A DNA stretch of 64,000 nt. Origin: Chlamydiota bacterium (GTDB lineage: Bacteria; Chlamydiota; Chlamydiia; Chlamydiales; SM23-39). The stretch is taken from positions 8,137-72,136 of the forward strand of contig DAHXLK010000017.1 of NCBI GenBank assembly GCA_027366035.1, given 5' to 3'. The position numbers and the translations under genes were made by a program. Below the pieces are notes generated by a model. It made no database searches and was not told the origin of the DNA. It was given only the letters and a program-made list of their open reading frames with translations. Below are positions 195 to 63,872 of the stretch, one piece after another (position 1 is the stretch's first letter; each line of letters opens with the position of its first letter).

Positions 195-1691
195 TTAGTT
201 ATGGCAAGGGCAAACACTTATAAGCTGTCGTTTGAGCTCTTTTAGGGCATAAGGATGGTGGTCTTGTTGCAAAGATAGCCTTTCTGCCGCCCGGTAATAA
301 CGCCAGGCGGCGGTATAGTCAAAACGTTGCAAAGAAAGGGTGGAGAGGTAGTAGTTGATTAATGGATCATTGGGATCAATGTCTTCATATTTTTGTAAGA
401 AAATAAGGGCCTCTTTTTCTCGGCCCTGCAGAATCCAGCAACTAGCCAGGGCGAGGAGTCCCGAACGAAACTTGGGATATTTTTGTAAGACCTCCTCTAA
501 TTTTTTTTGTTTTGCAAGGATCGATTCTCTCCTTCCGTTCATTTCCATAAAAATCGCTTTAATTCCTTCTATATCTACCTTTTGATCTAAATAGTCGATG
601 ATAAGGGTGTCTGGGCCAAGGGCATAGTCAGGTATTTTATTTTGAATCTTTTGCAAGAGCTCTTTGCCTTTTGCCGGGTTACCGTTTAAAAGATAATTGA
701 ATCCAAGGAGCTGCTGTAACAGGATATCATCGGGTAAAAATAAAAGGGCTTTTTCATACTGCGCTATCGCTTTGCCATACTCTTCATTTTTAAAGCTCAC
801 AGAAGCTTGGTTCATAAAAGCCAGTCCTACGACCTCTTTTAGCGTTCGGATTTGAAGCGTTTTTACTTGCATGCCTAGATATCTCTCACTAGGGACATGG
901 ATCCCTCGAGCCGTCGTTTCGATATTGAGCTCCTCTTTTCCTTCTTCGAGATAGCGGACATAAATGTGTCCCGGAGGTGTAACAGCTTGTAAATTTAGGC
1001 CGAGGCGCTGAGCTAAGCATAAGTAAAGGATCGATACTCCTAAGCAAACCCCACGTCTTTTATCGATGACGGAGGGGAGAAAGGTGTAGACATCGATATC
1101 TTTAATACTTACTGCTTGAGGGGGAAAGCGAAAACGCATCTCATGGAAAATAAAATGGCTAATTGCTCGAATTTTTTCATAAGGAGTTGCTTGTGGAGAA
1201 AGATGGGCTTGGATTTGAAGGGCCATAAGATCTAGTGATGCTTCATAGACCCTCGCTATCTCTAAAGAAGATTCGGCAAGGAGAAGGGCCCTAGCAACAT
1301 CGATCTCATTAGGGGGGAGGAGGAGGATCTCTTCTAATTTGAAGGTTTGATGGCCTTTTAGCATTCGGTTGTGAAGGTGGGAAGAGAGGCGTTCGATCAG
1401 CTCCAGCTCGTTTTCAGAGATCGAAGGGAGGGTGGCCTCCCTTCGATTGACCAAAGCGATGATTGGCTCTAGCGCAATTTCCGGGAGCTCTTGCATCTTA
1501 TAAGAAGGGCCTAAAAGTTTTATAATACGCTCTAAGGCTAATTGCCCTTCTTTTGTTTCCGGATAAAGCCGGTAGAAAGCGAGATTGTGGGAGATCGATT
1601 GGGGATCTAAGGAGGCATATTTGGCTTTGATACGTGGGTTGGAGGGGAAAAAAATTTCGGCAAAGAGGAGGAAAAGGGAGAAGTATTTCAT
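195..1691 (-). CDS. Transglutaminase-like / TPR-repeat protein (SirB1/YchA-like architecture), N-terminal hydrophobic leader
   Basis: 498-aa ORF. Cys...His core motif RRGVCLGVSILYLCLAQRLGL...PPGHIYVRY is typical of transglutaminase-like folds. The C-terminal half is TPR-like (AIAQYEKALLFLPDD, ALIFLQKYEDIDPND). Confidence 0.7.
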   Translation of the reverse strand: MKYFSLFLLFAEIFFPSNPRIKAKYASLDPQSISHNLAFYRLYPETKEGQLALERIIKLLGPSYKMQELPEIALEPIIALVNRREATLPSISENELELIERLSSHLHNRMLKGHQTFKLEEILLLPPNEIDVARALLLAESSLEIARVYEASLDLMALQIQAHLSPQATPYEKIRAISHFIFHEMRFRFPPQAVSIKDIDVYTFLPSVIDKRRGVCLGVSILYLCLAQRLGLNLQAVTPPGHIYVRYLEEGKEELNIETTARGIHVPSERYLGMQVKTLQIRTLKEVVGLAFMNQASVSFKNEEYGKAIAQYEKALLFLPDDILLQQLLGFNYLLNGNPAKGKELLQKIQNKIPDYALGPDTLIIDYLDQKVDIEGIKAIFMEMNGRRESILAKQKKLEEVLQKYPKFRSGLLALASCWILQGREKEALIFLQKYEDIDPNDPLINYYLSTLSLQRFDYTAAWRYYRAAERLSLQQDHHPYALKELKRQLISVCPCHN

Positions 1692-1856
1692 GGGACTGTT
1701 GAAATCTCCGCTTTGTAGTTAAAATTTGAGCCTTGCAAAGCCGGTTTGATTTTTTTGAAAGTGACATATCCTGCTAAGGTATAGGCGCTTTTAAAAAGAT
1801 CAAATCCGGGGAAGCAAGGCTCAAATTTTAACCAAATGGGAGATCGAAACAGTCCC
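1692..1856 (+). repeat. Family-A long-palindrome MITE-like element, copy A1
   Basis: gggactgttgaaatctcc...ggagatcgaaacagtccc terminal inverted repeats. Perfect 18-nt inner IR ttaaaatttgagccttgc (1719-1736) / gcaaggctcaaattttaa (1814-1831). Flanked by the direct repeat TTCAT (1687-1691 and 1857-1861). Confidence 0.9.
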
Positions 1857-1857
1857 T

Positions 1858-3411
1858 TCATAGCAAACTTCTCATAAAATTGGTGAGTTCATTATGGGAG
1901 ATGATGGCCTCTACTTTCGGCAAAAATCGGTAGGTCCAGTTGGTATCTAAGTTGAGGCCGGGGACGTTGATCCTTTCTTGTAGCGGATCTTTATGAGTTA
2001 GCTCTTCAAAAAGGGCTAGGTATTCTTGCAGGAGGTTGATATGAAAAAGAGAAGGGGTCTTATGAGCATCTTGCAAAAGCTTTTCTCGGATATTGCTAGT
2101 ACATTTAGTTTCGTAGCGCCAACTACGGGTGGCGGCAAACTCTTTAGCTTCCAACGGATTATTTTCCCACCACTGGCGAAGGGTTTCACTGTCATGGGTG
2201 GAAACGGAGGTGAGGCTCACCGGATCGTAGTCCCGGGGCTTTATCAAGCTACCATCTTCTTGTTCATAGCGGGACCATCTTGGAATTTTAGTTCCCGGTA
2301 TTCCCAAATCTTTTAAGGTGGCGTAGACCTCTCCGGGGATAGTTCCAAGATCTTCTGCAATAGGGAGCATGTAACTGGATTGTAACAGCATATTGAGCTT
2401 CTCTCTTCCATGTTCAGGCCATAAATAACGATTATTACAGACAAAAGCCCCATCCATTGCTTTTTTCCCCGGAGGTATCCCCCAGATGCGAAAATAGCCT
2501 ACGACATGGTCCATCCGGTAAAGGTGAAACAGTTTTTCCGCTTCCTGCAAACGTCGGGTCCACCAGAAATAATTCCTGTTTTTATGCTCTGTCCAATTGT
2601 ATAAGGGGGATCCCCACAACTGTCCTTGGGCATTGTACATATCGGGAGGGGCTCCGGCGATAAGGTTTACATTGAAAAGATCTCCATGAAACCAGACGTC
2701 GGCACTTTCGAGGCTGACGGAAAGGGGGATATCTCCTTTTAAAAAAACCCTTTTTTCCGTGGCGTACCGTTTTACCTCTTGCATCTGTTCGTAGCAAAGG
2801 TATTGGACAAAGGATTGGAATTGAAGTTCGTCAGCATGGATTTTCATCAGATGAAAGAGCTCTTTTTCTGGTGGTTTTGGGAAGATAGGGTCTTTTTGGA
2901 TTGCTTGAAAAAGGCCATATTCGGTAAGCCACGGATTTTTATGGAAAAAAGCTTGGAAAGCATGGGCATGGTGTAAATTTTTTTGGTGGCGGCGAAAATA
3001 ATCTTTTAGTAGGGAAAGCTTTCGCCTTTTTACTTCAGCAAAAGGGACATGAGAAGAGCGGTTGCAGTCTTGCAGCGCTTTTAGCTTAGATTGTATTCCG
3101 TCTAACTCATAAAGATCGGGAAGTTTGGTGAGGCGCAGGTAGACGGGGTTGAGGGCGCAAGAAGAGGTGGGGTTAAAAGGGCTGGGGTCGAAGCCGGTAT
3201 CGTGGATGGGGAGGAGTTGGATTACATCTAGTCCTATGTGGCGGGCCCAGTCGATGAGAGGTAAAAGGTCGAAAAACTCTCCTATTCCCAGACTTTCTTC
3301 ACTTAAAAGGGAGGCGAGGTGGAGGCAAAAGCCGTGATGGGGATAAACTCCGATCCGGTGCCAGTGGGGGGCGGAGACCTTAGAAGAGAGGAGGGTGGGT
3401 AAATAGCTCAT
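1858..3411 (-). CDS. malQ: 4-alpha-glucanotransferase (amylomaltase, GH77)
   Basis: 517-aa ORF with GH77-typical segments (LPIHDTG, HLYRMDHVVGYFRIW, PIAEDLGTIP, STHDSETL). Position next to the T3S chaperone/copN as in Chlamydia. Confidence 0.9.
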   Translation of the reverse strand: MSYLPTLLSSKVSAPHWHRIGVYPHHGFCLHLASLLSEESLGIGEFFDLLPLIDWARHIGLDVIQLLPIHDTGFDPSPFNPTSSCALNPVYLRLTKLPDLYELDGIQSKLKALQDCNRSSHVPFAEVKRRKLSLLKDYFRRHQKNLHHAHAFQAFFHKNPWLTEYGLFQAIQKDPIFPKPPEKELFHLMKIHADELQFQSFVQYLCYEQMQEVKRYATEKRVFLKGDIPLSVSLESADVWFHGDLFNVNLIAGAPPDMYNAQGQLWGSPLYNWTEHKNRNYFWWTRRLQEAEKLFHLYRMDHVVGYFRIWGIPPGKKAMDGAFVCNNRYLWPEHGREKLNMLLQSSYMLPIAEDLGTIPGEVYATLKDLGIPGTKIPRWSRYEQEDGSLIKPRDYDPVSLTSVSTHDSETLRQWWENNPLEAKEFAATRSWRYETKCTSNIREKLLQDAHKTPSLFHINLLQEYLALFEELTHKDPLQERINVPGLNLDTNWTYRFLPKVEAIISHNELTNFMRSLL

Positions 3412-7091: not shown

Positions 7092-8158
7092 TTAAAGAGC
7101 TCCATATTGACATCGGTAGCCTCTTCCAGAGATTTGACCCATTTCAAGATTTCCGCAATCGCCTGATAGGTGTCTTCAGGGATATAGTCGGATATTTTCC
7201 CTTTATAGAAAAGGGCCTGAGCTAACTCTGGATTTCTCATAATAGGGATTTTCAACTCCAGCCCAATCCGGATAATTTCTGATGCGATCTCTCCTTGTCC
7301 CATAGTTAAGATCATAGGAGCCGGATCTTTTTCCTCATAGCCTAAAGCGACAGCGATATGGGTAGGGTTGGTTATGATGGCCCTTGCCCTCCTTGCGGCG
7401 GAGGGCCCTTCTTGGTAGGCGATCTCTCGGAAGGCCTCCCTCCTCCTCCCTTTGGTCAAAGGGTCTCCTTCGGTATCTCGATATTCTTGTTTGACCTCAA
7501 ACTTTTCCATCATCATCTCTTTACCAAAGACCCGTTTTTGGAAGGCTAGGTCGAAAAGACCGATGATGATAAAGAGGATCCCCACCCTAATCGTTACTTT
7601 GATAAGAAAATCGTTAAGGACATAAGCCCCTCCGATAACCGGCATGGTGACGGTGGTAAGCACTTCGGGTACCATATTCCATATCACAAAGTAGATAATA
7701 ATAGCCGCTGCGGTAATCTTGACGATCGACTTTATCAGCTCTATTAGTGTCCGAATTTTGAATTTTTGCTTGATCCCTTCGATCGGATTTAACCTTTTAA
7801 ATTCAAACTTTATCGCTTCAAAAGAAAATACAGGACCTACGACGATGAAGCTGGCAAGAATGCCGATGAAAGTAACGACGACGACAAGTGGTAGCGACAC
7901 TTCTAATATGATTTGTAGGGTGTAGAGCATATAGCCGGCGGCTTTGGTAGCAAAATCTCCTTTAGTGCCGGCTTCTTTAAACATCAAGATAATGAAATTG
8001 CCGAGCTCGCGAAAAAAGTATCCCGATAAGAAAAGGGTGCCTACAATCGCTACTACGAAGGTAAACGCAGAAGGAAAATCTTGCGATTTGGCGACCTGCC
8101 CCTTTTTCCTCGCATCGCGAAGCTTCTTCGGTGTCGCCTTCTCCGTTTTTTCTGCCAT
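7088..8158 (-). CDS. sctU: T3SS export apparatus switch protein SctU (CdsU/YscU)
   Basis: 356-aa ORF. Start MAEKTEKATPKKLRDARKKGQVAKS. NPTH autocleavage motif (AIITNPTHIAVAL). Confidence 0.96.
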   Translation of the reverse strand: MAEKTEKATPKKLRDARKKGQVAKSQDFPSAFTFVVAIVGTLFLSGYFFRELGNFIILMFKEAGTKGDFATKAAGYMLYTLQIILEVSLPLVVVVTFIGILASFIVVGPVFSFEAIKFEFKRLNPIEGIKQKFKIRTLIELIKSIVKITAAAIIIYFVIWNMVPEVLTTVTMPVIGGAYVLNDFLIKVTIRVGILFIIIGLFDLAFQKRVFGKEMMMEKFEVKQEYRDTEGDPLTKGRRREAFREIAYQEGPSAARRARAIITNPTHIAVALGYEEKDPAPMILTMGQGEIASEIIRIGLELKIPIMRNPELAQALFYKGKISDYIPEDTYQAIAEILKWVKSLEEATDVNMELFK

Positions 8159-9374: not shown

Positions 9375-9458
9375 AATGTTTTTAAGTTTATCATAGATTG
9401 CTATTTTTTAAAAATAGAATTAAAAATTTACTATTGGGTTTTATGAAAAGTCAGTAAA

Positions 9459-9624
9459 GGGACTGTTGCAATCTTTAGCTTTGCCGTTAAAATTTGAGCC
9501 TTGCAAAGTCGGTTTGATTTTTTTGAAAGCGACATATCCTACTAAGGTATAGGAACTTTTAAAAAAATCAAATTCGAAGAAGCAAGGGTAAAATTTTAAC
9601 TAACCGGGAGATTTCAACAGTCCC
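9459..9624 (+). repeat. Family-A element, copy A2
   Basis: Full-length alignment to A1. Flanked by the perfect direct repeat GTAAA (9454-9458 and 9625-9629). Confidence 0.9.
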
Positions 9625-9656
9625 GTAAATAGTAAAATTTTTATTCCGGTAGCATG

Positions 9657-9822
9657 GGGCTATTTTGATCTTCGCATAGCTTTTAAAATTTGAGCTTTGC
9701 AAGGCCGGTTTGATTTTTTTTTGAAAATGACATATCCTACCAAGGTATAGGCACTTTTAAAAAGATCAAATTCGGGAAAGCAAGGGTAAAATTTTAACCA
9801 AATGGGAGATTTCAACAGTCCC
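9657..9822 (+). repeat. Family-A element, copy A3 (left terminal repeat decayed)
   Basis: Aligns to A1/A2 from ttaaaatttgagctttgc to agatttcaacagtccc. The left end has degenerated to gggctattttgatcttc. It lies 32 bp after A2 and ends 1 nt before the ychF stop codon. Confidence 0.85.
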
Positions 9823-9823
9823 G

Positions 9824-10918
9824 TCATGCATGATAAAACAAAATAACATCTCCATCTTGGACGATATATTCTTTTCCTTCTGACCTAGCTTTACCTGCTT
9901 CTCTAGCTTGAACCCTTCCTTTATAGGTGATCATATCCGAATAGGAGATGACCTCTGCACGAATAAACCCTTTTTCGATATCGCTATGGATACAGCCGGC
10001 AGCTTGGCTAGCTGTCATTCCTTTTTGGATCGTCCACGCACGGGTCTCCATCTCTCCTGCAGTGATGAAGGTAACAAGTCCAAGGAGCTCAAAGGCTGCT
10101 TTGATAAGTCTATTCAGCCCAGTCTCTTCGAGGCCGATGCTGTGTAAAAATTCTTTGGCATCTGCCTCATGTAACTGGGCTATCTCTTCTTCTAATTTGG
10201 CTGAGAGGGGAATTATCTTATTCCCTTCTACGTTTGCATACTCTTGGACACGCCGCGTAAGAGGATTTTCCATGGAGGGAAGGTCGTTTTCGCTGACATT
10301 GGTCACATAGAGAATTTTTTTTAAGGTGAGAAAAGGATATTTTTTTGCGATTTTGGCTTCTTCCTCAGTGAACGAGAATTTTCGAAGGGAAAGATTTTGG
10401 TTGAGATGGGAGAGGATTTTAGTAAAAAGGGCATGTTCTGCCTCTAACTCTTTTTTCCCTTTCATCTGCTTGGCAAGGCGGAAGGTGATGTTTTCGGCCA
10501 TCTGCAGATCAGCTAAGATGAGCTCAAGATTGATAACTTCGATATCTTGGATTGGGTCGATCTCTTGCATGATATGTATGACTTTCTCATCTTCAAAACA
10601 TCGGACTACTTGGATAATGGCATCAGTTTCGCGGATATTGGCGAGAAACTGGTTTCCGAGCCCCTCTCCTTTCGACGCCCCTTTGACAAGCCCTGCGATA
10701 TCGACAAAGGTGACCGTAGCATAGACAATTTTTTTGCTCTTATGGAGGAGGGCCAACTGTTCTAGCCTAGGGTCGATGAGGTTGACAATGCCCAGGTTCG
10801 GGTCGATGGTGCAAAAAGGATAGTTTTCGGCAGCGACCTGTTTTTTGGTGAGGGCATTAAAGAGGGTCGACTTGCCCACGTTGGGAAGCCCTACGATACC
10901 ACAAGAGAGCTCTTTCAT
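9824..10918 (-). CDS. ychF: Ribosome-binding ATPase YchF
   Basis: 364-aa ORF. G1 motif GIVGLPNVGKSTLFNALT. C-terminal TGS-like domain (RAWTIQKGMTASQAAGCIHSDIEKGFIRAEV). Confidence 0.96.
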   Translation of the reverse strand: MKELSCGIVGLPNVGKSTLFNALTKKQVAAENYPFCTIDPNLGIVNLIDPRLEQLALLHKSKKIVYATVTFVDIAGLVKGASKGEGLGNQFLANIRETDAIIQVVRCFEDEKVIHIMQEIDPIQDIEVINLELILADLQMAENITFRLAKQMKGKKELEAEHALFTKILSHLNQNLSLRKFSFTEEEAKIAKKYPFLTLKKILYVTNVSENDLPSMENPLTRRVQEYANVEGNKIIPLSAKLEEEIAQLHEADAKEFLHSIGLEETGLNRLIKAAFELLGLVTFITAGEMETRAWTIQKGMTASQAAGCIHSDIEKGFIRAEVISYSDMITYKGRVQAREAGKARSEGKEYIVQDGDVILFYHA

Positions 10919-20608: not shown

Positions 20609-20693
20609 ACTCGTCTTAGCAAAATGTACAAAGTCGAGTGACCTTGCCCTCAAAAACTAGTCCGGTTGAGATTGGAGGTTTGTGATCTTTTTA

Positions 20694-20859
20694 GGGACTG
20701 TTTCGATTTCCCATTTGGTTAAAATTTTACCCCTGCTTCTTCGGATTTGACTTTTTTAAAAGTGCCTATACCTTAGTAGGATATGTCACTTTCAAAAAAA
20801 TCAAACCGACTTTGCAAGGCTCAAATTTTAACGGCAAAGCTAAAGATTTCAACAGTCCC
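20694..20859 (-). repeat. Family-A element, copy A4 (inverted orientation)
   Basis: Reverse complement aligns end to end with A2. gggactgtttcgatttcc...aaagatttcaacagtccc. Confidence 0.9.
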
Positions 20860-20899
20860 TTTTTGGGGGCAAGGTCAACATGCCGGGCGCACCTTTGAG

Positions 20900-20987
20900 A
20901 GCTTGTGTGAACACAGACTCTCAAATTTTGCTGCAAAGCTATCAAAAAGGACAATTTTAGCAAGTAAATGGAGTTTCAAAAAAAGTC
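20900..20987. repeat. Family-B palindromic element, half copy (one arm plus centre)
   Basis: tgtgtgaacacagactctcaaattttgctgcaaagctatcaaaaaggacaattttagcaagtaaatggagtttcaaaaaaagtc matches the arms of the full family-B copy at 26104-26267. Its end touches the nadE stop codon. Confidence 0.75.
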
Positions 20988-22624
20988 TAATGCTTCCATC
21001 GCTGAACGATCGGGAATATCCTCCCTTTGCTAAAAGCCCGTTTGGTTACCCGGATTCCGGGAGGAGCTTGCCGCCTTTTGTATTCGGCGTTATGGATTTT
21101 GTTTATGAGTCCTTGTACAAGATCTAACGAAAGTCCCCTTTTCTTGCTGATATCCGTAGCGCTTAAAAGCTCTTCGACATAATCTTCTTGCACCGCATCA
21201 ACAGTGGTATATTCGGGAAGGGTATCGATATCTCTTTGTCCGGGTTTTAGCTCTGCAGTTGGCTCTTTATCTAAAATAGTTTGGGGAATCACCTTCCGGC
21301 GGCGATTGATAAATCTAGCCAGCTGATAGACCTGAGCTTTAGAGACATCATTTAAGACTCCAAGGCCGCCACACATATCGCCATAAAGAGTGGTGTAACC
21401 CATCGCCATCTCCGATTTATTGCCGGTACTCAAGACAATCGATCCAAATTTATTGGAAAAGGCCATTAAGATTATCCCCCTGATGCGAGACTGGAGGTTT
21501 TCTTCGGTAATATCCGGTTTATTTTTAGAAAAATGGGGGGCCAAAGTATCCAGAAAAGATTGAAACAGAGTATCTATAGAGAGATAAAGGAGTTTTATCT
21601 CCAAATTTTTTACAAGAAGGAGCGAATCTTCATAGCTCTCTTTAGAAGAGTAACGGGTAGGGAGAAAAAGGCAGGTGATGTTTTCTTTACCCAAGGCTTT
21701 TTCAGCAATGCAAGCAACCAGGGCTGAATCGATACCTCCGGATAAACCAAGTAGGGCTTTTTTAAAGCCTTGCTTGGAAAAATAATCCTTCACTCCTAAA
21801 ACTAGGGCAGAAAAGAGATCTTCGTAGATATCTTGTTCAAAGGCGATGGGAGATAGCCCCTGTTCCGTATCGATAATAAGATAGTCTTCTACAAACCCTT
21901 TGGCAACTTGGAGAAGCTCTCCTTTACTGCTCATATAAAGGCTGTAGCCATCAAAGATAAGCTGGTCATTCGCCCCTACTTGGTTGCAATAAACGATCGG
22001 ACATTTCAAAGTTTTTGCCGTAGCCGCAAAAGTAATGACCCTAGTATCTCGCTTTTGAAAATAGTAAGGGGAGGCGGAGAGGTTGAGGAGGAGGTCGGGG
22101 GGATTTTCTGCCAACTCTTTAACAGGGTCTCTCCTATAGTGGGTAAATAAAAGGTCCCCTCCATGTTGCCACATATCTTCACAGATAAGGATGGCGATTT
22201 TTTTTCCTTTATACTCGAAGATTTTCTGCTCTTTACCCGGTTCAAAATACCTCCTTTCATCAAAGACATCATAAGTAGGGAGGAGCGTCTTGTCCTTATA
22301 ACCTACCAGCCTGCCGTCGATAATAACTGCCGCTGAGTTAAAGGCCCCTTTTTCTTTCCCCTCCGGATTTTTCCTCGCCAGCCCTATCACAACCATAAGA
22401 TCGCTAGATGCTTTACAAATTTTTGGCATAACTTCTTCCATCTTTTCTAAAAAGCTCGGGTAGAAAAGGAGATCTTCAGGAGGGTAGCCGCAAAGGGTAA
22501 GTTCTGAGAAAAGGACAATATCGGCTTTTTGTTTTTTCCCTTTAGCGATGGCCTGAAAAATTTTTTTGACATTGTAGGTAAAGTCGCCGATGATTAAATT
22601 AAGTTGGGCTACAAAAATACGCAT
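20987..22624 (-). CDS. nadE: Glutamine-dependent NAD+ synthetase (CN-hydrolase + NAD synthase domains)
   Basis: 545-aa ORF. N-terminal nitrilase-like domain (FSELTLCGYPPEDL, ICEDMW). C-terminal PP-loop LGLSGGIDSALVA. Confidence 0.95.
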   Translation of the reverse strand: MRIFVAQLNLIIGDFTYNVKKIFQAIAKGKKQKADIVLFSELTLCGYPPEDLLFYPSFLEKMEEVMPKICKASSDLMVVIGLARKNPEGKEKGAFNSAAVIIDGRLVGYKDKTLLPTYDVFDERRYFEPGKEQKIFEYKGKKIAILICEDMWQHGGDLLFTHYRRDPVKELAENPPDLLLNLSASPYYFQKRDTRVITFAATAKTLKCPIVYCNQVGANDQLIFDGYSLYMSSKGELLQVAKGFVEDYLIIDTEQGLSPIAFEQDIYEDLFSALVLGVKDYFSKQGFKKALLGLSGGIDSALVACIAEKALGKENITCLFLPTRYSSKESYEDSLLLVKNLEIKLLYLSIDTLFQSFLDTLAPHFSKNKPDITEENLQSRIRGIILMAFSNKFGSIVLSTGNKSEMAMGYTTLYGDMCGGLGVLNDVSKAQVYQLARFINRRRKVIPQTILDKEPTAELKPGQRDIDTLPEYTTVDAVQEDYVEELLSATDISKKRGLSLDLVQGLINKIHNAEYKRRQAPPGIRVTKRAFSKGRIFPIVQRWKH

Positions 22625-25245: not shown

Positions 25246-25410
25246 GGGACTGTTGAAATCTCCCATTTGGTTAAAATTTTACCCTTGCTTCTCCGAATTT
25301 GATGCTTTTAAAAGTGCTTATACCTTGGTAGGATATGTCGCTTTCAAAAAAATCACACCGGCTTTGAAAGGTTCAAATTTTAACGGAAAAGCGAAGATCG
25401 AAACAGTCTC
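25246..25410 (-). repeat. Family-A element, copy A5 (inverted orientation, right terminus slightly decayed)
   Basis: gggactgttgaaatctcccatttggttaaaattttacccttgc...gaagatcgaaacagtctc aligns to the reverse complement of A2/A3. Confidence 0.88.
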
Positions 25411-26103: not shown

Positions 26104-26267
26104 TAGACTTCTTTCGAAACTCCATTTGCTCGCTAAAATTGTCCTTTTTGACAGCTTTGCCGCAAAATTTTTCAACCATGTGTTCAAACATGCTCTCAAA
26201 ATTTTGCTGCAAAGTTGTACAAAAATTGCTAATTTTATCAAACAAAGCGAGTTTCGAAAGAAGTCTA
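26104..26267. repeat. Family-B long-palindrome element, full copy B1
   Basis: 19-nt perfect terminal inverted repeats tagacttctttcgaaactc (26104-26122) / gagtttcgaaagaagtcta (26249-26267). The arms are imperfect inverted repeats around the centre caaccatgtgttcaaacatgctc. It fills the whole rpe-stop to yvcK-start gap. Confidence 0.85.
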
Positions 26268-27233
26268 ATGAAAAAAATCGTTGTATTAGGTGGTGGAACG
26301 GGGAATTTTGTCGTCTTAAGAGGTCTTAAGCAGTACGAGGTGGATCTGACGGCGATTGTTTCGATGGCAGACGACGGAGGAAGCACCGGCATTTTGCGCG
26401 ATGAACTGGGTGTGTTGCCCCCCGGCGATGTGAGGCAGTGTTTAGTTGCTCTGTCCAATTCCTCAAGACTATTGCGCAGTTTGATGAATTACCGTTTTGA
26501 AAATGGTAATCTTGGAGGGCATAGTTTTGGTAATTTGCTCCTCTCGGCTCTGGAGAAGGTGACGGGGAGTTTTGAAAAGGCGGTCGAAGAAGCGGGAAAA
26601 ATCTTATATATTCGAGGTAAGGTATTGCCGGTTACGACTCACCAGGTACGGCTTAAGATGATTTTGAGCAACCGAAAGGTTTTGGAAGGTGAGAGGGAGA
26701 TCTATTTGTCACAAGAGATCGATAAAGGCTATAAAAGTATCTTTTTAGAGCCCTATCCTCGAGTCAATCCTAGAGTGTTAGATGAGATCAAAAATGCCGA
26801 TCTTATGGTACTGGGGCCCGGCGGACTTCATACATCCATCATCCCCAACTTTTTAGTTGAAGGGGTCACAGAGGCGATTTGTAAAACGCAGGCAACCAAA
26901 GTGTACGTAACTAATCTAATGAATCGAAAAGGACAGACCACCGGATATAAGGTAAGCGATTATCTAAAAGAAATGGTAACTTATCTAGGAAAAGACTGTA
27001 TCGATTATATTTTGGTAAATAATAAAAAACCTGTCGAAGAGCTGATCGCCAGGTATTCCGAAGAAGGGCAGATTGTTGCAAACGATATGGTCAATGATCC
27101 TAGGGTGATCCATGCCGATATGCTAGGAAATTTTGCGGAAGAAAATAAAAGGGATCTCATCAAGCGCTCTTTGATCAGACATGATAGTAAAAAATTGGCT
27201 CAGGAGTTAATGCGTATTGTTAATCATCTTTGA
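26268..27233 (+). CDS. YvcK/CofD-family (UPF0052) gluconeogenesis-factor-like protein
   Basis: Start chosen at MKKIVVLGGGTGNFVVLRGL (ATG 26268) rather than the track's 26139, which reads through repeat B1. Motif VSMADDGGSTG. Confidence 0.88.
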   Translation: MKKIVVLGGGTGNFVVLRGLKQYEVDLTAIVSMADDGGSTGILRDELGVLPPGDVRQCLVALSNSSRLLRSLMNYRFENGNLGGHSFGNLLLSALEKVTGSFEKAVEEAGKILYIRGKVLPVTTHQVRLKMILSNRKVLEGEREIYLSQEIDKGYKSIFLEPYPRVNPRVLDEIKNADLMVLGPGGLHTSIIPNFLVEGVTEAICKTQATKVYVTNLMNRKGQTTGYKVSDYLKEMVTYLGKDCIDYILVNNKKPVEELIARYSEEGQIVANDMVNDPRVIHADMLGNFAEENKRDLIKRSLIRHDSKKLAQELMRIVNHL

Positions 27234-46582: not shown

Positions 46583-46774
46583 CTATAAAATATGGATCAC
46601 ACTTGTGACAACTCCAAGAATATGAAAATTCATCTGGCTTGAAATATCGAGTGGAGAAAAAGCATCATTTTCTGCAAGAAGTCGGATTTTATTTTTCTCG
46701 ATATGCAAACGTTTTACAGTAAACTCACCATTCACTGTGGCAATGACAACTTTTCCGTGTTGAGGTTCTACTAC
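46583..46774 (-). pseudogene. umuD: UmuD/LexA-type S24 peptidase, C-terminal fragment only
   Basis: HGKVVIATVNGEFTVKRLHIEKNKIRLLAENDAFSPLDISSQMNFHILGVVTSVIH parallels E. coli UmuD [20 protein letters not shown]...[25 protein letters not shown]. The Ser-containing N-terminal half is missing. Confidence 0.7.
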
Positions 46775-47002
46775 AATTTTCCATGAACTGCAATAATAAA
46801 CATTTAAAAATCCGAAGAAGACCGTGTCCTTAATATAAGGATTATCATTTTCCAATTTCTTGAGTTTTTTCTCGACTGATTTGAACGATCAAATCTTAGC
46901 AAATTTACGATAGTTGTGGTTTTCGGGTACTAAATCTTCTAACCAAATAATTTCAGCTTGTTGAATGGAACCCTTCTTAAAAAACAGAAAATTGTAAAAC
47001 AT
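46775..47002 (-). pseudogene. Remnant of an IS5/IS1182-type transposase N-terminus (InsH_N-like), with an in-frame stop, fused to the umuD fragment
   Basis: The minus-strand translation reads MFYNFLFFKKGSIQQAEIIWLEDLVPENHNYRKFAKI*SFKSVEKKLKKLENDNPYIKDTVFFGFLNVYY. The L.DLVPE.H.YRK block is typical of this transposase N-domain. Confidence 0.35.
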
Positions 47003-47016
47003 CCTTGAAAAGGATT

Positions 47017-47050
47017 CCAGATTTCAACAGTCCCCTTTTGGAGGCAAGAT
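47017..47050. repeat. Isolated right end of a family-A element plus conserved flank
   Basis: ccagatttcaacagtcccc ttttggaggcaagatc matches the right end and flank of copy A4 (aaagatttcaacagtccc tttttgggggcaaggtc, 20842-20876). The rest of the element is absent. Confidence 0.7.
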
Positions 47051-47066
47051 CATATTGCATAATGTC

Positions 47067-58800: not shown

Positions 58801-60033
58801 GAAAATAGGACATTAGAAGAGTATAAAAAACTTCTCAATATGAAATCGATCGAACCGCTACAAACTTTTAACCTCGAACTAGGTACAAAGATTTTTCTCT
58901 CAGACGGAGCTAAAGTTTCTAAGGGGCAGAAATTGGGAGAATGGGAGCAGCACTCTAGTCCTATCATTTGCGAACGTCCCGGTTATGTCAGATATGATGA
59001 CCTTGTCGAAGGGATCTCTACTCAAAAAGAGATCAATAAGCAGACAGGGCAGGTCGAATTGATTGTCAAACAACACCGAGGAGAGCTCCATCCTCAAATT
59101 GCTATCTATGCCGACTCCCATTATTCGGAGTTGATCGGTACCTACGCGATCCCTTCCGGAGCATCGATTTCAGTGAAGGAGGGACAGCATGTGAAAGTAG
59201 GTATGATCCTTGCCAAACTTTCTAGAGGAGCTATTAAGACAAGAGATATTACCGGAGGTCTTCCCCGTGTCGCCGAGCTTTTCGAAGCTAGGCGACCTAA
59301 AGAGGCTGCTGAAATTGCTAAAATCGACGGTATTGTCGATTTCAAAGGGGTCCAAAAGAACAAGAGGATTTTAGTGGTTAAAGATGAGGTTTCCGGAATG
59401 GAAGAAGAACACCTCATCCCACTTACAAAACATTTGATCATTCAGCGTGGCGATCATGTCGTCAAAGGGCAGCAGCTCACCGAGGGGCTTATCGTCCCGC
59501 AGGAGATTCTCGAAGTCTGCGGCGTTCGCGAATTACAGAAATATATGGTCAACCAGGTTCAAGAAGTCTATCGTCTCCAAGGTGTTGACATCAACGATAA
59601 ACACATCGAAATTATCGTCCGTCAGATGTTGCAGAAGGTGAAGGTTATTGACCCCGGTGACACCACTTTTCTCTATGGGGAAAATGTCGATAAGAAACGG
59701 TTTCATCAATTGAATACTAAGACATTAGGAGAAGGAGGCAAGCCTGCCCAGGCAGCGCCTGTCCTATTAGGTATCACTAAAGCTTCTTTGGGTACCGAGT
59801 CGTTTGTCTCTGCGGCCTCTTTTCAAGAGACAACCCGTGTCCTTACCGATGCGGCTAGTGAAGGAAAGACCGATTATCTCCTTGATTTTAAGGCCAACCT
59901 TATTATGGGGCATATGATTCCCGGTGGTACTGGCTATGAATACCATAAGAAGGTGAAGAAGTTTGTCGACCGTGAGCTGGAAGAAGAGCTCATCTTTGAT
60001 TTTGGCGAAAAGCATGAGGAATCCTTAGTTTAA
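55855..60033 (+). CDS. rpoC: DNA-directed RNA polymerase subunit beta'
   Basis: 1392-aa ORF. Zinc motif CACGKYKK...CDRCGVEV. Catalytic NADFDGDQM. Confidence 0.99.
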
Positions 60034-60198
60034 GGGATTGTTGAAATCTCCGCTTTGCCGTTAAAATTTGAGTCTTGCAAAGCCGGTTTAATTTTTTTGA
60101 AAGTGACATATCCTACTAAGGTATAGGCTCTTTTAAAAAGATCAAATCCGAGGAAGCAAGAGTAAAATTTTAATCAAACGGAAGATCGAAACAATCTT
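60034..60198 (+). repeat. Family-A element, copy A6 (termini slightly decayed)
   Basis: gggattgttgaaatctccgctttgccgttaaaatttgagtcttgc...ggaagatcgaaacaatctt. Starts at the nucleotide after the rpoC TAA. Confidence 0.88.
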
Positions 60199-60591: not shown

Positions 60592-60758
60592 GGGACTGTT
60601 GAAATCTCCGCTTTGCCGTTAAAATTTGGGCCTTGCTTCCCCGGATTTTATCTTTTTAAAAGTGCCTATACCTTAGTAGAGGATATGTCACTTTCAAAAA
60701 AATCAAACCGACTTTGCAAGGCTCAAATTTTAACCAAATGGGAGGTCGAAACAGTCCC
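60592..60758. repeat. Family-A element, copy A7: outer arms in plus orientation, inner core (60637-60715) inverted
   Basis: The outer parts match A1 collinearly (gggactgttgaaatctccgctttgccgttaaaatttgggccttgc ... gcaaggctcaaattttaaccaaatgggaggtcgaaacagtccc). The segment between the 18-nt inner inverted repeats matches the reverse complement of the A1 core. Confidence 0.88.
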
Positions 60759-63710: not shown

Positions 63711-63872
63711 GGGACTGTTTCGATCTTCCATTTGGTTAAAATTTTACCCTTGCTTCCCCGGAGTTGATCTTTTTCAAGCGCCTATACCTTAGTAGGATAT
63801 GTCACTTTCAAAAAAATCAAACCGGCTTTGCTAGGCTCAGATTGTAACCAAATGGGAGATCGAAACAGCCCC
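63711..63872 (-). repeat. Family-A element, copy A8 (core in minus orientation; mosaic subterminal modules)
   Basis: gggactgtttcgatcttccatttggttaaaattttacccttgc...gctaggctcagattgtaaccaaatgggagatcgaaacagcccc. Both subterminal 9-mers are of the ccaaatggg type. Confidence 0.85.

Follow-up and report, generated by a model that had tools for sequence, protein, structure and literature searches.

The stretch of DNA analysed here, referred to below as the window, comprises 64,000 nucleotides from an uncultured chlamydia-related bacterium (Chlamydiota bacterium, GTDB lineage SM23-39; assembly GCA_027366035.1, contig DAHXLK010000017.1, positions 8,137 to 72,136), and is part of the 84.6-kb metagenomic contig k141_863314 (ENA ERZ27233573). 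Near its left end two genes are read from the minus strand, i.e. malQ (1858-3411), which encodes a 4-alpha-glucanotransferase of 517 aa with a GH77 domain (Pfam E = 1.3e-113), and, downstream of it, a gene (195-1691) for a transglutaminase-like/TPR protein of 498 aa. Between them lies a 165-bp repeat element, designated c1 (1692-1856, plus strand), which is the subject of this study. Locally the genes follow one another as sctU-sctV-copN-scc-malQ, and the best homologues carry the labels Chlamydiae, Chlamydiales or Parachlamydiales. At all three operon junctions just upstream, i.e. sctU/sctV, copN/scc and scc/malQ, the neighbouring genes overlap by 4 bp.

Element c1, whose 5' letters are GGGACTGTTGAAATCTCC and whose 3' letters are GGAGATCGAAACAGTCCC, is directly bounded on both sides by the pentamer TTCAT (ATGAA on the coding strand), at the positions given in a sequence-only reading of the window. 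The left copy of the pentamer (1687-1691) contains the ATG of the transglutaminase/TPR gene (1691-1689), together with a TGA (1690-1688) that closes an open reading frame (ORF) of 57 codons running through the whole element; the right copy (1857-1861) contains the malQ stop codon TGA (1860-1858), together with the ATG (1861-1859) that opens this ORF. No spacer bases are left at the junction, the element ending 1 nt from the malQ stop and 0 nt from the downstream ATG. When the element and one TTCAT are removed in silico, the coding strand reads ...AGT TTG CTA TGA overlapping ATG AAA TAC (reconstructed empty-site string TTGCTATGAAATAC / GCTATGAAATAC / AGTTTGCTATGAAATACTTC), which reproduces the stop/start overlap that the sequence-only reading had described. 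It had also held that the duplication preserved both signals, and both genes are indeed intact, with termini that coincide with those of their homologues: the C-terminus of MalQ lies 0-3 residues from where most of 40 homologues end, and the first Met of the transglutaminase/TPR protein precedes a signal-peptide-like segment and aligns with the initiator Met of its homologues.

We consider it likely, with a probability of roughly 0.8, that c1 is a MITE (miniature inverted-repeat transposable element) which stems from an insertion sequence (IS) of the IS5 type, ~1.18 kb in length, and which inserted into an ATGA stop/start overlap with a 5-bp target site duplication. Under this reading, a transposase supplied by a full-length IS and acting in trans would have recognised the element by its two 16-nt ends, left and right; cuts staggered by 5 bp would have been made at ATGAA on the coding strand, where the TGA of malQ overlapped the transglutaminase/TPR gene's ATG; and repair of the gaps would have duplicated the pentamer, leaving the malQ stop in one copy and the downstream ATG in the other. 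Both signals would have been regenerated because the 5 bp that were duplicated exceed the 4-bp overlap. In an operon with 4-bp overlaps and no intergenic DNA, the overlap is essentially the sole site where an insertion spares the genes, which probably accounts for the exact position of the element.

A family of repeats in the window

In the window there are eight full copies of the element, each 162-167 bp long, plus a solo end. When up to 3 mismatches are allowed, the 18-nt terminus of the family has 10 matches in the window, versus 0.06 expected by chance, and a pattern combining the terminus with subterminal letters has 9. Both ends of a copy carry GGGACTGTT(GAA/TCG)ATCT in inverted orientation, which gives two types of end, a left inverted repeat type (IRL, with GAA), GGGACTGTTGAAATCT, and a right inverted repeat type (IRR, with TCG), GGGACTGTTTCGATCT; in c1 the former occupies 1692-1707 on the plus strand, and the latter occupies 1841-1856, read on the minus strand. 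The boundaries of the element were set independently of the duplication, from an alignment of the eight copies with 20-nt flanks and from the ends of related ISs (see below), and in the alignment the similarity begins exactly at GGG and stops exactly at CCC. The copies are 8-30% diverged, and all of them are intergenic and lie near gene ends. The copy nearest to the family consensus is c1 (96.4% identity), which fits a comparatively recent insertion whose duplication has not decayed.

A perfect 5-bp duplication is also found at c2 (9459-9624, plus strand), which is flanked by GTAAA at 9454-9458 and 9625-9629, and a match at four of five positions at c4 (20694-20859, minus strand; TTTTA/TTTTT), so that the check for duplications at other copies, proposed in the sequence-only reading, has come out in favour of transposition. 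The flanks agree at three of five positions at c3 (9656-9822, plus strand, 31 bp from c2; AGCAT/GTCAT) and at c5 (25246-25410, minus strand; AACAT/AGAAT). No clear duplication is seen at c7 (60034-60198, plus strand), the right end of which is degenerate, no clear 5-bp duplication at c8 (60592-60758, plus strand), and none at c9 (63711-63872, minus strand). Two 5-mers that are 165 bp apart match at all five positions by chance at 0.14% of the window positions, or at 0.67% if both are AT-rich; the probability of at least two perfect matches among eight copies is 5e-5, rising to 1e-3 in the AT-rich control. After c1 and c2, the lineage's third clean duplication of 5 bp is that of the IS on contig L133 described below, which has ATTAT on both sides. 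Together with the terminal inverted repeats (TIRs), the dispersed copies and the IS5-type ends, these recurrent duplications support the transposition with a 5-bp duplication that had been claimed for this locus.

Several further features of the copies deserve mention. Copy c7 begins directly after the stop codon TAA of rpoC (1392 aa; 60031-60034), and the right end of c3 lies 1 nt from the TGA of ychF within ATGAC (9822-9826), which resembles the target ATGAA of c1; stop codons are hugged by insertions in this compact genome. The copies also occur as isomers, in that, with respect to the IRL and IRR ends, the asymmetric core of c3, c5 and c8 has the opposite orientation to that of c1, c4 and c7 (in c8 the termini are ordered as in c1), and the pairing of ends is odd in two copies, c2 having two IRL-type ends and c9 two IRR-type ends. 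This pattern suggests recombination or conversion between the arms of a hairpin or between copies.

Two other repeated sequences have been noticed next to members of the family. A 17-nt motif, TGACCTTGCC(C/T)(C/T)CAAAA, occurs at 20639-20655, 20861-20877 and 47036-47052 (3 matches versus 0.29 expected); it brackets c4 in inverted orientation, and its third occurrence directly adjoins the IRL end of the relic IS described below. It may reflect either a hairpin-like target preference of the IS and the MITE, or a joint movement of ends and flank by recombination. A second, unrelated repeat of ~97 bp with 78-86% identity is present at 20894-20989, 26104-26200 and 26179-26270, where it adjoins c4 and is found at a distance of ~0.7 kb from c5; one of the occurrences is in part a palindrome.

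Relationship to an IS5-type insertion sequence

The solo end of the family (47034-47017) led to the presumed parent, for it belongs to a truncated IS relic of 265 bp (46770-47034, minus strand), in which an IRL (47034-47019) is followed by ~65 transposase codons with a stop and a frameshift. The ORF begins 33 nt inside the end and reads MFYNFLFFKKGSIQQAEIIWLEDLVPENHNYRKFAKI up to a stop; after the stop and the frameshift it resumes as ...RIFKCLLLQFMEN, and is then fused to a fragment of Peptidase_S24. These codons correspond to the first ~65 codons of a DUF772-type transposase of the IS5 superfamily. A search with the relic peptide returned 49 short DUF772 proteins, and the contigs on which they are encoded revealed them as the first ORFs of ISs of 1175-1181 bp that encode DUF772 and DDE_Tnp_1. 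An intact transposase of this kind, 320 aa long and containing both DUF772 and DDE_Tnp_1, is encoded at 3311-4273 of contig L133, and the ~65 codons of the relic are 59-90% identical to it. This transposase passes the NCBIfam model IS5_4 narrowly, with 142 bits versus a cutoff of 140; the IS1182 model gives its N-terminal part a higher score, which does not reach the cutoff there, and its distant homologues on plasmids are annotated as IS5-family. IS5 itself is ~1.2 kb long and has 16-bp inverted repeats.

The left ends of the related ISs are GGGGCTGTTGAAATCT (contig L131) and GGGACTGTTGAGAACT (contigs L133 and L134), and their right ends are GGAACTGTTTCGATCT (L134) and GGGGCTGTTTCGATCC (L131). 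The IRL and IRR types of the MITE are the IRL and IRR of these ISs: the IRL-type terminus of c1 is identical to the relic end at 47034 in 16 of 16 positions and nearly identical to the left ends in L131, L133 and L134, and its IRR-type terminus matches the right ends in L134 and L131. The similarity between MITE and IS is confined to the 16-nt ends, and the interiors are unrelated. From these ends it appears that c1 has been derived from, and presumably mobilised by, an IS of the IS5 type.

Within 46583-47034 (minus strand), the relic is joined to a LexA/UmuD-like gene of Peptidase_S24 (Pfam E = 2e-13), of which the C-terminal half is present, and this part of the window is a decayed mobile or SOS-related region. 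Outside the chlamydia-related bacteria, a plasmid of the ciliate symbiont Candidatus Bandiella woodruffii (Rickettsiales) was found to carry an IS whose transposase is 63% identical and whose ends, GGGAGTGTTGCAAGAT / GGGAGCGTTGAAAGAT, are similar (L146; NZ_CP110821.1, 29424-31558), and, judged from these sequences, the IS lineage is common to unrelated intracellular bacteria of protists. The duplication of this plasmid IS is ambiguous, being either 3 of 5 positions or a 3-bp TGT, and the seven contigs that contain P0252 represent one single insertion, without a clear duplication. Another transposase gene, of the IS1634 family, lies on contig L007 (19741-21384), ~8 kb beyond the start of the window. 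It is intact (547 aa; NCBIfam 367 bits), and elements of its family make 5-6-bp duplications; it was rejected as the parent of the MITE because its flanks lack GGGACTGTT ends. It is adjoined by a gene for a 676-aa protein with a NEL domain (novel E3 ligase), the two spanning 17249-21384 of L007, ~5.5-9.7 kb beyond the window start. The NEL-domain protein, whose gene thus stands next to a separate IS at the contig end, is a candidate effector.

Evidence against the insertion and alternative explanations

A number of observations weigh against the origin of c1 proposed above. A perfect 5-bp duplication is present in just two of the eight MITE copies and in one of four related IS insertions. The subgroups of IS5 duplicate 2-4, 8 or 9 bp in the ISfinder tables, and a duplication of 5 bp is unusual among them. 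No intact IS5-type transposase gene was found in the window and the 9.8 kb beyond it, i.e. in 74 kb of this genome. The repeat family itself was absent from the genome, metagenome and viral collections searched with the terminus-plus-subterminal pattern, and from plasmids; the 18-nt terminus alone gave 120 single matches in metagenomes, which we take to be due to chance since none has a partner end or any further similarity.

The remaining objections concern the ancestral junction. When MalQ peptides were searched against 185,579 representative genomes and protein searches were added, neither a close relative nor a true empty site was found, the nearest MalQ being 60% and the nearest homologue of the downstream gene 57% identical. 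In three more distant relatives, malQ and the transglutaminase/TPR gene are neighbours with unrelated spacers in between, which measure 59, 33 and 38 nt, and no upstream in-frame start is present in any of the three. In the closest relative (L003, 5562-8984), two oppositely oriented genes, one for an ankyrin-repeat protein of 742 aa and one for a protein of 258 aa, lie between malQ and the transglutaminase/TPR gene, and its malQ encodes a C-terminal extension of 21 residues; in another relative the two genes are not adjacent. The sequence-only reading had named an unrelated spacer in relatives as the finding that would undermine its reconstruction, and taken literally this is what the three relatives have; for the opposite outcome, an empty site with the overlap, the searches yielded no close genome. 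Spacers of such distant relatives say little about a 4-bp junction at that divergence, and, by comparison of the gene orders, the junction between malQ and the transglutaminase/TPR gene is a recurrent site of change. An ancestral ATGA overlap is the simplest reading of the sequence and a plausible one. The IS pair on L133 was also considered as an internal empty site, and was rejected because the full copy lies ~59 bp beyond the truncated copy and not inside it.

If the spacers of the three relatives are taken at face value, the element could have entered a pre-existing short spacer of 33-59 nt, the two genes never having overlapped in ATGA and the TTCAT pair being a chance repeat, as the lack of a perfect duplication at most copies of the family might also suggest. 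We regard this as distinctly unlikely. Not a single spacer base remains, with 1 nt to the malQ stop and 0 nt to the ATG; the match at five of five positions has a chance probability of 0.0014-0.0067, and a chance repeat must in addition have placed both a stop and a start correctly, at the positions where the homologues end and begin; and neighbouring junctions of the operon overlap by 4 bp as a rule. It might be argued instead that the repeat is a structural or regulatory hairpin of the host, of the REP type or acting in RNA processing or stability or as a small RNA, which has spread by recombination and beside which the flanking repeat is incidental. A very stable hairpin is predicted for all copies (z about -11), the copies stand between genes close to gene ends, and their divergence indicates that they are old, all of which such an origin would explain. 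What makes it very improbable in our view is that the termini are the ends of an IS, with distinct IRL and IRR types, that 5-bp duplications occur at independent sites, that no Rfam family is matched, and that the arms of the hairpin in most copies have mismatches rather than compensatory changes. A secondary role of the element for the host after its insertion may nevertheless exist.

As for the assembly itself, short-read assemblies break at this repeat, which raises the question whether c1 is an artefact, i.e. a collapsed or mis-joined repeat between two genes. In the assembly of a second sample (Logan SRR33270664), both the junction of malQ with the element and that of the element with the downstream gene are identical to the window in every base, on separate contigs, one of which breaks off 29 nt beyond the stop codon of malQ and the other of which begins 56 nt upstream of the downstream ATG, both inside the element. 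Contigs of this sample start or stop within MITE copies (L002, at 1-41 and 7644-7671; L008, at 1-56), and therefore the family fragments short-read assemblies of this organism. With both junctions shared exactly by two assemblies from different samples, and with the ENA contig reading through the whole copy, an artefact is hardly credible; the insertion is real and present in both samples, because its junctions are the same in the second assembly. We therefore retain the insertion of a MITE into the stop/start overlap as the preferred explanation of the locus.

Predicted structure and expression of the junction

Every copy of the family is predicted to fold as a single full-length hairpin. For the transcribed strand of c1 the predicted folding energy is -76 kcal/mol, and with its flanks -84 kcal/mol (z = -11.4). 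A search against Rfam returned no family match other than tRNAs, and neither a sigma-70-like promoter nor an intrinsic terminator was predicted on the coding (minus) strand between 1400 and 2200; an identity of the element as an intrinsic terminator or a known structured RNA was rejected on these grounds. As no promoter or terminator was found there, malQ and the transglutaminase/TPR gene are most likely still co-transcribed, with ~170 nt of strongly structured RNA predicted between them. The GGAG noted in the sequence-only reading (complement of 1706-1709) is present 14 nt upstream of the transglutaminase/TPR ATG, though it is paired inside the stem of the predicted fold. Translation of the downstream gene might hinge either on re-initiation once the 57-codon ORF has been read, or on a weak initiation of its own.

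The 57-codon ORF (MKGLFRSPIW...ISTVP; 1688-1861, minus strand), whose start and stop codons are the duplicated ATG and the duplicated TGA, has no Pfam match. Its start overlaps the malQ stop, and its stop overlaps the downstream ATG; it spans the element because 165 + 5 + 1 = 171 is divisible by three and the frame is free of stops. When the same frame is followed in the other copies (entering at the end aligned with 1856 of c1, at offset 1), there are no stops in c1, c4 and c5, and one stop in c2, c3, c7 and c9, as against 2-7 stops in the rest of the six reading frames. Such a frame of 55 codons would be stop-free by chance in a few per cent of cases, and its occurrence in several copies may be simple inheritance from the founding copy; alternatively, copies that can be read through could be those which are tolerated inside operons. 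It is conceivable, if unlikely, that two rounds of termination and re-initiation relay the translational coupling across the element, the ribosomes melting the hairpin on their way, in which case the two genes would not have been uncoupled by the insertion. The sequence-only reading had overlooked this ORF, and its description of the locus as operon uncoupling is overstated.

Comparison with known elements

By sequence-based criteria, the element is a bacterial MITE: its copies are 162-167 bp long, the sole ORF through c1 has 57 codons and no Pfam match, TIRs and dispersed copies are present, the duplication is of constant length, and the ends are common to autonomous ISs (those in L131, L133 and L134). 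Examples of bacterial MITEs are RUP of Streptococcus pneumoniae, Nezha of cyanobacteria, the SM elements of Sulfolobus and MITEPgRS of Porphyromonas gingivalis. Like other MITEs derived from ISs with a DDE transposase, the element is short (~165 bp) and non-coding, forms a hairpin, shares its TIRs with an IS, has a fixed length of duplication, and is dispersed between genes. Unlike them, it belongs to a new sequence family which, in the collections searched, was present only on this contig, its interior is unrelated to the IS, and its copies occur as isomers. With respect to the presumed parent, the IS5 family is resembled in the size of the related ISs (1175-1181 bp), in their inverted repeats of ~16 nt, and in the 320-aa transposase that passes the IS5_4 cutoff; the 5-bp duplication here, and the fact that this genome showed just a 265-bp relic, set the case apart from that family.

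Several other groups of small repeats share individual features with c1. The Correia elements (NEMIS) of Neisseria are likewise hairpin-forming MITEs, of 100-160 bp, located between or next to genes, and they are known to be co-transcribed and able to alter the expression of downstream genes, as may be the case here. They duplicate TA and have 26-bp repeats. An identity with them was rejected, given the 5-bp duplication, the unrelated ends and the IS5-type parent of c1. The Rickettsia palindromic elements (RPEs) are also palindromic repeats of an obligate intracellular bacterium with one frame kept open; they are found in frame inside protein-coding genes and are translated with them, whereas c1 lies between two genes and contains a separate 57-codon ORF, and the other copies are intergenic, so that an in-frame insertion of the RPE type was not accepted. 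The Tn3-derived inverted-repeat miniature elements (TIMEs) share with c1 the 5-bp duplication and ends starting with GGG. Ends of the Tn3 family are ~38 bp long, and its transposases have ~1000 aa. The similarity of c1 to an autonomous element extends over 16 nt only, and that element is an IS of the IS5 type, for which reason this identity was likewise discarded.

Conclusions

The proposed entry of c1 into a stop/start overlap would be a neat textbook example of an ordinary transposon insertion; it comes as no surprise, and the current understanding of MITEs is unchanged by it. We found no report of MITEs in chlamydia-related bacteria in the literature searched. What the locus adds is a MITE family of high density (~1 copy per 8 kb in the window), with a probable IS5-type parent, in an uncultured member of this group, and an account of why short-read assemblies of the organism break at this site. 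It would also illustrate a simple route by which a transposon can enter an operon without intergenic space, since both the stop and the start are regenerated by a duplication whose length equals or exceeds that of the 4-bp overlap. Finally, the junction offers a natural test case for the effect of 170 nt of hairpin RNA on a downstream gene near a type III secretion cluster.

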